From positions 78,239 through 142,238 of the forward strand of contig CAVUXJ010000007.1 in assembly GCA_963745495.1 (NCBI GenBank): 64,000 bases of DNA, given 5' to 3'. Source of the DNA: an uncultured Acidobacteriota bacterium (lineage in GTDB: Bacteria > Acidobacteriota > Vicinamibacteria > Vicinamibacterales > CAVVIG01). The notes beneath the pieces are model-generated. The model saw nothing but the letters and a program-made list of their open reading frames with translations, did no database searches and had not been told where the DNA came from. Every line of letters begins with the position of its first letter. The first letter of the stretch is position 1. The position numbers and the translations under genes are program-made. Positions 23,881 to 30,133 of the stretch are shown here, piece by piece.

Positions 23881-24258
23881 TTAACCTCGACGACTCTCCC
23901 GCTGCAGCTCACGGAGCAGCCCTCGCGTGTTGCCGAGATGATTGTTAAAGATCCGACGGGCGACATCGAGCAACTCGCCGACGAGTGGGTCACGGAGCGT
24001 GTATCGCACCGACGATCCTTCCTTCTGCGCGGAGACGATGCCTTGGTTGCGGAGCACGGCCAACTGCTGCGAGACGATCGGCTGCTCGAGGGTCAATGCC
24101 TCCTGCAGTTCCTGCACCGTACGTCCCCCTCGCACGAGGATCTCCAGCATTCGGATCCTCGTGGGATGGGCCAAGGCTCGGAAAAACTGCACCTTGAATG
24201 TCTGAAGCTCACCGGCGATCATCGGTTCACCGGCCTTCCGACCTCGCTGTTGAGGCAT
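23881..24258 (-). CDS. ArsR/SmtB-family transcriptional regulator (no cysteines)
   Basis: ORF track, 125 aa. FFRALAHPTRIRMLEILVRGGRTVQELQEALTLEQPIVSQQLAVLRNQGIV is a winged HTH. It lies divergent from dabA. Confidence 0.85.
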   Translation of the reverse strand: MPQQRGRKAGEPMIAGELQTFKVQFFRALAHPTRIRMLEILVRGGRTVQELQEALTLEQPIVSQQLAVLRNQGIVSAQKEGSSVRYTLRDPLVGELLDVARRIFNNHLGNTRGLLRELQRESRRG

Positions 24259-24303
24259 CAGTAATCTATCATATTAGAATATCTCTATACCCTCAAGCCT
24301 TCG
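24259..24303. promoter_or_regulatory. divergent arsR/dabA control region with AT-rich palindromes
   Basis: The 45-nt intergenic region reads ..TAATCTATCATATTAGAATATCTCTATACC.. It contains ATATT-AG-AATAT (24271-24282) and nested TCTA/TAGA half-sites. It is strikingly AT-rich in a GC-rich context. Confidence 0.4.
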
Positions 24304-27310: not shown

Positions 27311-28674
27311 CGTTGAGCGTGCCGCTCACCTTGCTGGTGCTCGTCGGCGTCGGATCGCCCGCCGTCCTGCTCGTGCTGCTCGGCGGCACGTCGCTCGTCG
27401 ACCGGCGCCTGCCGGAGCGCTGGACGGGCACGCTCGCCGGCGGCTCGATGATGATCTCGTGCGCCGCTTTGTCGATGGCGCTCGTGGTGTACAGAACAAC
27501 GGGAACGGGCACGCAGCTCCTGACGTACGGCGCATGGTCTGCCTCCCACGAGGGCGGCATCGCGATCGAATTCCTGGTCGACCGACTCTCGCTGGGGTTC
27601 GCCGCGCTCTCGGCCGCGATCGCCGGCGTCGTGTCTGCGTTTTCCTTTCGATATCTGCACCGGGAATCCGGCTACAACCGTTACTTCGTCCTGCTGGCCA
27701 TGTTCGTGACCGGCATGCTGCTGGTCGCGCTGGCCGGCAACGTCGAGGTGCTCTTCATCGGATGGGAATTTGTCGGCCTCAGTTCGGCGCTGCTCGTTGC
27801 GTTTTTTCACGAGCGGCCCGCAGCAGTATCGAATGCGCTGCGCGTGTTCTCGGTCTACCGTATCAGCGACGCCGCCATGCTGTCGGCGGCGGTTCTGCTG
27901 CGCCACGTCGCCGGCACCGACAGCCTCTCGCTCCTGTTTGGCCGCGCCGACGCGGCGTCGACGATTCAGCTGACGGGAGCCGACGCGACGATCATCGCCG
28001 TCCTGCTCATCGTGGCCGTCGCCGGCAAGAGTGCGCTGCTGCCCTTCTCGAGCTGGCTGCCGCGCGCGATGGAGGGACCGACGCCGTCGAGCGCCGTTTA
28101 CTATGGATCGCTGTCGATTCATGCCGGCTGTTTTCTGTTGCTGCGGTCGGCGCCGCTGCTCGAACAGGCGCCGGTGGCGCGCTTCCTCGCCGCCGGTCTC
28201 GGCGCCGCTACCGCTGTGTTCGCGGGGATCACGACGCGCGTGCAGAGCGATGTGAAATCGTCGCTGGCGTATGCGTCCCTCACGCAAGTCGGCATCATCG
28301 TCGTCGAAATCGCGATCGGCTGGTACACGATCGCCTTCGTCCACCTGGCCGGACACGCCTGCTTTCGACTGCTGCAGTTCCTGACTGCCCCGAACGTTCT
28401 TCACGATCTGCACGGGATGGAAGACGCCATCGGCAACCGACCGTTTTCAGCCGGTGGCTACTTCGAGGCGGTGACATCGGAGCGCCTGCGCCGGGGTTTG
28501 TTCCTGATCGCGCTCGAACGCGGATTCCTCGACAGCATCCTGGACCGGGTCGTGGTCGAGCCCTTTACGCGACTCGCACGCCAACTGACACGCCTCGACG
28601 GCTGGCTGTGCGACGCCGTGCTGCCGACGCGGCGGCCCGTCGCGGTCGAGGGAGGCGAGGATCAAGATGAGTGA
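27307..28674 (+). CDS. dabB: DabB-like NuoL/NdhF/MrpA-family proton-conducting membrane subunit
   Basis: The ATG overlaps the dabA stop (ATGA). GWEFVGLSS and [34 protein letters not shown] are PF00361-type motifs. About 455 aa. Confidence 0.8.
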   Translation: [455 protein letters not shown]

Positions 28675-30133
28675 CGCTCGCCTCTGGCTGGTCGCTCTGG
28701 CGGCCCTGCCCGCTCTCGTGATCGGCGCATCGTTTCTCCGTGTTGACGTAGAGCGCCTCCGGCGCCTCGCCGTCGTGTCCGCGGTGGCCATGTTGCTGGC
28801 GGCGCTCGTCATCGCTGTTTCGCCACCCCTGCGCGCCCTCTCGATCCGCAGTGCCGCGCTCAGCTGGGTTCCGGGCGGAGAGGCCATCCTTCGCATCGAC
28901 ACGCTCTCGGCCGTCCTCTTGCCGTTCGCGTCTGGTCTGTGGCTGCTCACCGTCGCGGTGACGCCGCGCGCCGCGCTCGATCGGGGCGGATTGCGCCGAA
29001 CCGCCCTGGCGACCCTCATCACGCTCGCATCCTTTCTTACCGAGAGCGCGGTCGTGCTGCTGCTCCTGTCGGTGGCTTCCGTCTGGACGTTTTTGTCCGC
29101 GCTGGCGGACCCGGCGCATCAGTATCAGCGCCGCGTCGTGGCGGCTTATCTGGGTTTCTCGACGTTGCTGTTTGGCCTTGGGGTCGTGCTGCTCATCGGT
29201 CCGGGCGTGCAGAACACGACGATCGAAACAGCCGGCATGTGGCTGATTGTGATCGCGGCGCTCGTGCGAAAAGGGATCGTCCCCTTCCACGCATGGGTGC
29301 CGGAGGTATTCGATCAAGGACGGCTGGGCCCGGCCATTCTGTTCAGCGCACCTCAGATAGGCGCGTATATGACTGTCGTGCTGATTGTGCCGCGCGCCTC
29401 TCCCGACATGTTGCGGATGATTGCCATCCTGGCGCTCGGGACCGCCGTCTACGGCGCAGCACTGGCGCTCGTCCAGACCAGTGCACGCCGGGCGTGCGGG
29501 TACCTGTTCATGAGCCAGTCCGCGCTCGTGATGGCGGGCCTCGACTGCACCAGCGCGAGCGCGCTGGCGGGCGGGCTGCTCGTCTGGCTGTCGGCCGGGT
29601 TGGCGTTTGCCGGACTCGCCCGCTGCGTCCTCGTCCTCGAGACGCGCCGCGGGCGGCTCGATCTGACCACGTATCACGGTGGGTATGAGCGCATGCCGCT
29701 GCTGGCGATCAGCTTCCTCGCCATGGGGCTGGCGTGCACCGGCTTCCCGGGCACGCTCGGGTTCGTAGGTCAGGAACTCCTGGTGGACGGCGCGGTCGAC
29801 GTTTTTCCTGTGATGGGGTTCGCCGTCGTTCTTGCGTCTGCGCTGACCGGCCTTGCCGTGCTTCGGATGTACTTTTCGCTCTTTTGCGGCCGCTCGGATC
29901 CGCTGGCCCATTCAGGGCTGCGGTTTGGGTTGACGCGCCGCGAAGCGTGGACGTTCGTGGCGCTCGTGATCGCGCTTGTCGGCTTCGGTGTCGCGCCTCG
30001 CCCGCTCGTCGATTCCCGGTTCGCGGCCAGCGACGAGATTCTGCGGCTGCGACGAGTGCGCATGCTGGGCGAGCAGAAGGCTATTTCAGGGGCACAGTTG
30101 AACACGGGCCTTCGGTCCCAATCCCAACCCTGA
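28667..30133 (+). CDS. second antiporter-like (NuoM/NuoN/MnhD-type, PF00361) membrane subunit
   Basis: ORF track, 488 aa, with an 8-nt overlap with dabB (ATGAGTGA). VRKGIVPFHAWVPEVFDQG, multi-TM throughout, and GFPGTLGFVGQELL near the C-terminus. Confidence 0.75.
   Translation: MSDARLWLVALAALPALVIGASFLRVDVERLRRLAVVSAVAMLLAALVIAVSPPLRALSIRSAALSWVPGGEAILRIDTLSAVLLPFASGLWLLTVAVTPRAALDRGGLRRTALATLITLASFLTESAVVLLLLSVASVWTFLSALADPAHQYQRRVVAAYLGFSTLLFGLGVVLLIGPGVQNTTIETAGMWLIVIAALVRKGIVPFHAWVPEVFDQGRLGPAILFSAPQIGAYMTVVLIVPRASPDMLRMIAILALGTAVYGAALALVQTSARRACGYLFMSQSALVMAGLDCTSASALAGGLLVWLSAGLAFAGLARCVLVLETRRGRLDLTTYHGGYERMPLLAISFLAMGLACTGFPGTLGFVGQELLVDGAVDVFPVMGFAVVLASALTGLAVLRMYFSLFCGRSDPLAHSGLRFGLTRREAWTFVALVIALVGFGVAPRPLVDSRFAASDEILRLRRVRMLGEQKAISGAQLNTGLRSQSQP

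Follow-up and report, generated by a model that had tools for sequence, protein, structure and literature searches.

How does a DAB-type inorganic-carbon pump work when its genes encode two different antiporter-like membrane proteins? This question is raised by a 64,000-nucleotide stretch of DNA from an uncultured Acidobacteriota bacterium of the Vicinamibacterales (contig CAVUXJ010000007.1, positions 78,239 to 142,238), hereafter the window, in whose numbering all positions are given. At 23881-30133 it carries dabA, a NuoL-like dabB, a third gene for a NuoM-like protein, and a divergent gene for an ArsR/SmtB regulator. The original prediction, made from the sequence without database searches, held that described DABs have two components and that this locus may represent an undescribed three-subunit DAB. 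The former statement is outdated. DAB1 was called a three-gene cluster already in a 2018 preprint (10.1101/476713), Lo et al. (2026) reported hneap_0908 as a small transmembrane (TM) third subunit, and Phillips et al. (2026) showed by cryogenic electron microscopy that Thermocrinis albus DAB1 is a DabA/DabB/DabC heterotrimer (10.64898/2026.05.01.722082). DabC aligns structurally with the NuoM helices beside NuoL and has hydrophobic residues at the relay positions; it is essential in vivo yet non-pumping, has no water chain and was judged structural (10.64898/2026.05.01.722082).

Klimchuk et al. (2017; COGNAT) described ybcC (DUF2309) upstream of a nuoL homologue, often with a COG1008 (NuoM) gene nearby, and proposed that several ions are moved where an operon has more than one membrane subunit (PMC5700660). 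What stood of the claim to an undescribed three-subunit DAB is a conserved, coupled third PF00361 subunit; the DAB1 trimer and the 2017 ybcC-nuoL-nuoM operons precede it. Our literature search found no characterisation of the dabA-dabB-NuoM-like operon type, nor of its link to DabC. Judging from sequence comparison, we consider it probable that the product of the locus is a DAB-type vectorial carbonic anhydrase of three subunits, with a DabC homologue as a structural or electrostatic and likely non-pumping third subunit, and with ArsR as its probable repressor.

Gene organization and the catalytic subunit

Genes in the window were assigned from a listing of open reading frames (ORFs) together with Pfam and NCBIfam scans. 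The dabA gene lies at 24304-27310 (+) and encodes 1001 amino acids (aa) once one base is removed; PF10070 matched it in two frames, with 566.6 bits (profile positions 1-629) in one and 165.2 bits (positions 627-747) in the next. It is followed by dabB (27307-28674, +; 455 aa), which matched PF00662 plus PF00361 positions 1-230, and by the third gene, or 'long DabC' (28667-30133, +; 488 aa), which matched PF00361 over positions 75-294 with 85.7 bits. The hidden Markov model (HMM) check that had been proposed thus returned the expected family for each gene, and the prediction of two distinct PF00361-type membrane genes after dabA, a NuoL-like one and a NuoM-like one, was borne out. Direct reading of the sequence revealed both overlaps as claimed, ATGA at 27307-27310 between dabA and dabB and ATGAGTGA at 28667-28674 between dabB and the third gene, the latter preceded by a GGGAGG-like ribosome-binding site. 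The three genes are translationally coupled. The protein motifs quoted in the original prediction, KGIVPFHAWVPEVF among them, were all found in window ORFs.

The beta-carbonic-anhydrase-like zinc pattern ascribed to DabA was likewise present. The ligands C468, D470, H654 and C669, with 15 residues from His to Cys, were invariant in 57/57 DabA sequences of the clade; they aligned with the C-x-D, H and C of DabA2 (PDB 9rd0) and are common also to DabA1. The protein matched chain 9rd0_A (DabA2) with an E value of 3.7e-60, and hydropathy analysis revealed a hydrophobic hairpin at about residues 561-589, at a position matching the elbow/finger motif. Both hallmarks of a DAB catalytic subunit, a PF10070 match and zinc ligands of the beta-carbonic-anhydrase type, were therefore found. 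In the plasmid collection there was no close relative of the window DabA, every match being below 36% identity. ARAGORN called a 94-nucleotide (nt) tRNA-Tyr/Cys at 25869-25962 (-) within dabA, which we rejected as a false positive as it had no Rfam support and lay in a conserved coding region. The same call appeared at the equivalent place of dabA in five related loci (L001-L003, L009 and L033).

Homology of the third protein to NuoM and DabC

We investigated whether the third protein is an ordinary complex I or Mrp subunit, a result that would have spoken against a distinct DAB architecture. Among the NCBIfam models NuoM TIGR01972 fitted it best, with 118 bits where 263.8 are required, which indicates that it is not an ordinary subunit of either kind. 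Neither the TIGR01972 nor the NF0045xx cutoffs were reached, the TM5 Glu and TM8 Lys of NuoM are lost and its TM7 Lys is Arg, and in place of a nuo operon the genomic context was dabAB in 73/73 loci. Family-HMM scores served as a proxy for placement relative to MrpA/D and NdhF3/D3. The MrpA/MrpD cutoffs were not reached (DabB 159 bits vs 937; third protein 72.8 vs 542), and no small Mrp subunits were present among the gene calls around close relatives. When profiles were compared with hhalign, the match of the third family (46 aligned sequences) to E. coli NuoM ran from end to end (residues 11-460 vs 6-498; E 1.9e-23), and that to E. coli NuoN was confined to the C-terminal half (E 3.6e-14).

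As a DAB1 reference we used the operon on the N. hamburgensis plasmid (locus L088), DabC-positive in Supplementary Table 6 of Phillips et al. (2026); the operon's order is dabB (565 aa), dabC (253 aa), dabA (1037 aa) and PII. A DabC profile built from 31 sequences matched the third-family profile with a probability of 96% and an E value of 3.9e-9 over 237 columns (third protein 194-443 vs DabC 5-245). A repeat gave 95%, an independent, locus-derived alignment of the third protein gave 81%, and the control comparison of DabC with the clade DabB profile gave 0.9%. Because of these comparisons with DabC and NuoM, the TM7-14 half of the third protein appears to be the counterpart of DabC, and sequence homology indicates that the whole is a full-length, 14-helix NuoM-like homologue of DabC. 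The operon thus encodes, as DAB1 does, a membrane subunit homologous to DabC. The small size, missing Pfam domain and hydrophobic relay positions typical of DabC were not seen in it: the third protein has 488 aa, a PF00361 match and charged residues in TM7 and TM12.

Most of the NuoM relay is lost. NuoM E144 (TM5) is replaced by hydrophobic residues, K265 (TM8) by Ser, Thr, Leu or Asn, H322 by Gln and H348 by Ser or Ala. NuoM K234 (TM7) corresponds to R201, which is invariant in 46/46 and 65/65 sequences, and H208 is invariant too. NuoM E407 (TM12) aligned with a column of Q, A or E, and the adjacent E370 was acidic in 46/46. The DabC profile held no acid at the position matching E370. Since the relay residues are mostly lost or made non-titratable, the third subunit is most likely non-pumping.

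One 714-aa protein (P0210) contained two PF00361 stretches, and the second falls within the third-subunit family; either DabB and the third subunit are fused in this protein, as in the 'fused' DabB-DabC of Aquificae, or a frameshift at the overlapping stop and start has produced an artefact.

Features of the DabB subunit

The best NCBIfam model of DabB was NuoL NF005141, at 233 bits, far below its cutoff, and the protein matched PDB 9rd0_B with an E value of 1.4e-32. The PDB alignment to NuoL spanned residues 10-358 of NuoL only, and coverage by PF00361 ended at profile position 230 of 294. Hydropathy analysis detected no hydrophobic segment beyond residue 349 of the window DabB and no TM12-15 segments, so that the layout is TM1-11 followed by a non-hydrophobic tail of about 100 aa. 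The same analysis found four additional hydrophobic segments past TM11 in Nitrobacter DabB1 and in a DAB2-like DabB. A full-length DabB as in DAB1 (about 560 aa, 15 TM helices, TM12-15 displaced by the DabA elbow) is therefore not what the window encodes.

Among 66 clade sequences, E154 (equivalent to NuoL E144, TM5), R185, D188, K241, H272 and H346 were invariant, and H350 was present in 60/66. The position of the TM11 Lys of NuoL (K342) was Arg (R354) in 66/66. DabB is thus the adjoining NuoL-like PF00361 subunit expected of a DAB, with the proton-path residues in place except for the TM11 Lys-to-Arg change and the missing TM12-15. In the two other DabB examples examined, the TM5 Glu position was Phe in Nitrobacter DabB1 and Ile151 in DabB2. 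In the Nitrobacter hamburgensis DabB1 (L088:3014-4711), an Arg aligned at the TM7 position, which is Lys in NuoL and in the window DabB.

Conservation of the operon among relatives

A whole-library phmmer search with the third protein returned 282 clusters (50% identity) at E <= 1e-30, mostly full length and with 30-60% identity, and at least 571 relatives were recorded when one genome per GTDB species was scanned. Locus surveys were conducted on the best 80 of these. The order dabA-dabB-third gene on one strand was found in 73/73 informative loci, down to 39% identity, without a counter-example among the 80; the other 7 loci end at contig edges. The dabB stop and the start of the third gene overlapped or stood a few bases apart throughout. 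The survey thereby answered the concern that the third gene might not be conserved beside dabAB in relatives. Hosts of the 80 loci included Vicinamibacterales and other Acidobacteriota, Polyangiales, Nannocystaceae and other Myxococcota, Binataceae, Gemmatimonadales, Planctomycetes, Spirochaetales, Eisenbacteria and others. The window proteins were 80-89% identical to those of Vicinamibacterales and Acidobacteriota metagenome-assembled genomes (MAGs).

No RuBisCO, PII or LysR gene was found within 8 kb in the window and 85 other related loci, a result that would fit a bicarbonate-supply role in a heterotroph, as for MpsAB (PMC6689103). The single exception was locus L084, where a sequence about 4 kb downstream of the third gene weakly resembled LysR.

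The frameshift in dabA

The original prediction had noted that dabA needs a frame correction near 26.75 kb. We located the cause as one inserted C at position 26758 on the forward strand, in the context CTGGCT[C]TCG. Three copies with 97-98% nucleotide identity (L001, L002 and L003) have no counterpart of it, and in L002 and L003 an unbroken gene for a 1001-aa DabA precedes those for proteins of 455 and 488 aa, with the same overlaps. Without the extra C, the window DabA is 1001 aa long and identical to that of L002 at 983/1001 positions.

Four other genes of the window were also frame-broken when compared with a short-read relative: a SurE gene at 30616-31347 (three reading frames, four aligned pieces), and a radical-SAM gene at 33842-34928, a MoaA gene at 34941-35958 and a response-regulator gene at 35976-36390, each split over two frames. 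Across the 80 related loci, frame changes in dabA, dabB or the third gene occurred in 12/24 long-read MAG loci ('MFD ... contig_N') and in 0/56 other assemblies. The window is an indel-rich and probably nanopore assembly, and for this reason any frameshift in it is to be distrusted. Comparison with the intact copies indicates that the extra C is almost certainly a long-read assembly error and that the error-free sequence at this site would almost certainly read CTGGCTTCG. A programmed frameshift was ruled out, as relatives encode dabA as a single continuous ORF.

The divergent ArsR regulator

The regulator gene (23881-24258, -; 125 aa) is divergent from dabA. Its product matched PF01022 (E 1e-11) and NF033788 (84.6 bits against a cutoff of 55), which places it in the ArsR/SmtB family with the winged-helix HTH_5 fold. 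It had been described as lacking cysteine and therefore as an improbable thiolate metal sensor, and our comparison agrees: Cys was absent from the window protein and from 26/26 orthologues encoded divergently upstream in Acidobacteriota, one Myxococcales bin and one Binataceae bin. The sole invariant His of these orthologues lies within an ALAHPTR motif, and the alpha5-region His varies among R, H and Q. A thiolate or alpha5 metal site is thus unlikely, given the lack of Cys and the unconserved alpha5-region His. Neither metal-ligand set, Cys in alpha3/alpha3N or His/Asp/Glu in alpha5, was found, and scores for BigR, CmtR and other named ArsR equivalogs were far below cutoff.

We then aligned about 25 orthologous regions corresponding to the 45-bp arsR-dabA intergenic region (24259-24303). 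The arsR start ATG was conserved, as was an AT-rich dyad, ATATTAGAATAT, at 24272-24283; an AATATT-NN-AATATT core followed by a TATA(C/A)T-like element recurred in these regions, in a genome of about 65% GC. This dyad is a plausible candidate for an ArsR operator overlapping both divergent promoters. More distant loci lack this regulator, suggesting that ArsR is a lineage-specific addition.

Genomic setting and mobility of the cassette

The cassette is bracketed by direct repeats of about 270 bp that are 92-95% identical, and both have the 3' 49 nt of tRNA-Pro(CGG) at their end. The left repeat lies at 23221-23491, its last 49 nt (23443-23491) being a truncated 3' part of the tRNA; the right repeat (30208-30475) runs into the 3' part of an intact tRNA-Pro(CGG) at 30427-30503 (-), which was identified by ARAGORN and by Rfam RF00005 (64.5 bits). 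A search with the 49-mer gave two matches, with 0 expected by chance. tRNA-Pro(CGG) is the probable integration target. No integrase was found inside the repeat-bracketed cassette. The cassette is 97-98% identical in contigs whose flanks are unrelated (L001, L002) or only 79% identical (SurE in L003), which argues for recent lateral spread. From these comparisons, the cassette looks like a small integrase-less island recently spread among Vicinamibacterales.

In four further loci (L025, L080, L039 and L041), proteins of 66-87% identity, some accompanied by an ArsR gene, were binned to Bifidobacteriaceae, a beta-proteobacterium, Myxococcales and Binataceae, reflecting either horizontal transfer of the cassette or mis-binning. 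To the left of the cassette, the window encodes an Abi_alpha protein (15292-16044, +) and a 978-aa fusion of PLD nuclease, ResIII/DEAD helicase and DUF3427 (20277-23213, +). The region near tRNA-Pro has the look of a defence or variable island.

Proposed mechanism and alternative explanations

We propose that the complex, in a Vicinamibacterales-like acidobacterium of soil, uses membrane energy to trap CO2 as bicarbonate. DabA would be the zinc-dependent, beta-carbonic-anhydrase-like catalytic subunit, with a membrane-inserting hairpin, and DabB the NuoL-like proton conduit of TM1-11, in which the residues of the cytoplasmic half-channel and the two ion pairs of the NuoL interface are retained. 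The third subunit probably sits against DabB as NuoM sits against NuoL, and as DabC is placed in DAB1, and would serve there as a structural or electrostatic partner, most likely without pumping. A NuoM/NuoL-type electrostatic interface is suggested because the interface Glu of DabB and the TM12 acid of the third subunit are jointly lost in the DAB1 and DAB2 examined. The divergent Cys-free ArsR probably represses the three genes through the AT-rich dyad. Several points weigh against this proposal. The position of the third subunit is drawn from homology to DabC and NuoM only, and its AlphaFold2 model had a mean predicted local distance difference test (pLDDT) score of 51, from a multiple sequence alignment of 83-100% identity. 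The link to DabC was detected by profile-profile comparison only: single-sequence comparisons were non-significant, at E 0.64 for DabC with the third-family profile and E 0.13 for E. coli NuoM with the DabC profile, and the DabB profile used as the control has no TM12-14. In addition, the TM11 Arg and the apparent absence of TM12-15 in DabB mean that the periplasmic half-channel must differ from that of DAB1 and DAB2, and the invariant R201, H208 and E370 could support ion or electrostatic transfer.

These three residues are also the starting point of another explanation, in which the third subunit is an active second ion-translocating module and at least two H+ or Na+ move per CO2 hydrated, as in a two-module complex I arm. 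This would agree with a full-length, 14-TM PF00361 protein that keeps a charged TM7 residue (R201), H208 and the TM12 acid, with the interface Glu (E154) found in 66/66 DabB sequences, and with the multi-ion proposal for multi-subunit operons by the COGNAT authors (PMC5700660). We think it unlikely, since the TM5 Glu and TM8 Lys are gone, Gln and Ser replace the two central His, Arg, a poor proton carrier, occupies the TM7 position, and the homologous DabC, which has no water chain, was judged structural. A further possibility, which follows a proposal older than the DAB concept, is that the three proteins together convert energy in a way that has nothing to do with CO2, for instance as a cation antiporter or exporter driven by some other DabA chemistry. 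The clade is indeed unlinked to RuBisCO, carboxysome, PII and LysR genes, unlike DAB1, and complementation of a Na+/H+ antiporter mutant has been reported for MpsAB (PMC6689103). However, the four zinc ligands of the beta-carbonic-anhydrase type and the motifs near them are invariant and common to the characterised DabA2 and DabA1, and DABs in heterotrophs without RuBisCO are established bicarbonate suppliers (PMC6689103), which makes this reading highly unlikely.

The cassette in this genome might also be a decaying pseudogene, with a real frameshift in dabA, left as a remnant within a genomic island. The inserted base lies outside any long homopolymer, and the setting between direct repeats is island-like with no integrase inside. 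Against this, the 3 kb of dabA held no indel but the extra C when compared with intact copies of 98% identity, the downstream dabB and third gene have unbroken frames, SurE, radical-SAM, MoaA and response-regulator genes of the same window are likewise frame-split, and frame changes were confined to long-read assemblies (12/24 vs 0/56 loci). A pseudogene is very unlikely on these grounds, and we give the idea almost no weight; the frameshift that the original prediction feared might undo it is best seen as an assembly artefact. A different proposal concerns origin: the clade might preserve a form of DAB close to the ancestral one, with electrostatic coupling between a NuoL-type module and a full NuoM-type module (DabB E154/K241 with E370/R201 of the third subunit), DabC being a truncated relic and DAB2 having lost the subunit. 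We regard this as tentative and somewhat doubtful. If true, it would set out an evolutionary path that leads from membrane arms of the complex-I/Mrp kind to minimal CO2 pumps, and would provide a natural system in which to probe the role of DabC.

Significance and comparison with known systems

DAB pumps are candidates for engineering CO2-concentrating mechanisms, and the three-gene variant occurs in hundreds of species-level genomes, mainly of uncultured soil Acidobacteriota and Myxococcota. Its full-length third subunit, TM1-11 DabB and retained NuoL/NuoM interface residues offer a comparative handle on the membrane drive of a carbonic anhydrase. Abundant heterotrophic soil bacteria would thus carry and exchange a predicted energised CO2-capture cassette under ArsR-type control of a non-metal kind. 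DAB1 has already established the principle of a three-subunit DAB with a partner at the NuoM position, and work of 2017 had noted the operon type. What looks new is a full-length DabC homologue as the third subunit, alongside an 11-TM DabB that keeps the interface Glu; the wide spread in uncultured soil phyla, the linkage to ArsR and the dyad, and the mobility of the cassette also appear to be new.

The closest system is DAB1 (T. albus; H. neapolitanus Hneap_0907-0909; N. hamburgensis L088), which shares three subunits, a DabA of about 1000 aa and the same zinc ligands. In Nitrobacter and T. albus the third-subunit gene directly follows dabB, as in the window, and DabC, which sits at the NuoM position beside DabB, is homologous to the C-terminal half of the window protein. 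DabC has about 250 aa and, in Nitrobacter, no Pfam match, whereas the window protein has 488 aa, a PF00361 domain and an end-to-end alignment with NuoM. DabB1 has 559-565 aa and four more hydrophobic segments, whereas the window DabB has 455 aa and none after TM11; the window DabB keeps the TM5 Glu that is Phe in Nitrobacter DabB1 and has Arg for the TM11 Lys. The TM12 acid of the third subunit is kept in the window and lost in DabC. Gene order in the window is A-B-C and the regulator is ArsR, whereas Nitrobacter DAB1 is linked to RuBisCO, PII and LysR; the window clade lacks these linkages and any to a carboxysome.

DAB2/MpsAB/DAC (PDB 9rd0) shares the catalytic family, the NuoL-like partner and the proposed vectorial CO2 hydration that is coupled with the proton-motive force, but it consists of two subunits only, its DabB2 has 15 TM helices and Ile151 for the TM5 Glu, and its DabA2 has 827 aa. 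The 'clade C' ybcC (COG3002)-nuoL operons of Klimchuk et al. (2017) have the same order and an extra COG1008 gene, and they are very probably the same operon type as that of the window (PMC5700660). That work presents a neighbourhood pattern only, which predates the DAB function, and contains neither the DabC link nor a residue analysis.

The original prediction also drew a parallel with the cyanobacterial NdhF3/NdhD3/CupA module. It holds as an architectural analogy and not as kinship, because DabB scored 114.9 bits with TIGR01960 against a cutoff of 588.7 and the third protein was nearer to NuoM than to NdhD. PDB 6tjv chains F and D scored below NdhF1 and NuoM, and neither an NdhF3-family protein nor CupA was found; the carbonic-anhydrase-like partner here is DabA, which is unrelated to CupA. 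Unlike complex I and NDH-1MS, the window locus has no redox module, reaches no Nuo or Ndh cutoff and has a degenerate relay in its NuoM-like subunit. It nevertheless shares with both the pairing of a NuoL-class with a NuoM-class subunit, which in NDH-1MS and in the window carry a CO2-hydrating protein, and it has kept, as in complex I, the NuoL-like subunit's TM5 Glu/TM7 Lys pair and the NuoM-like subunit's TM12 acid.

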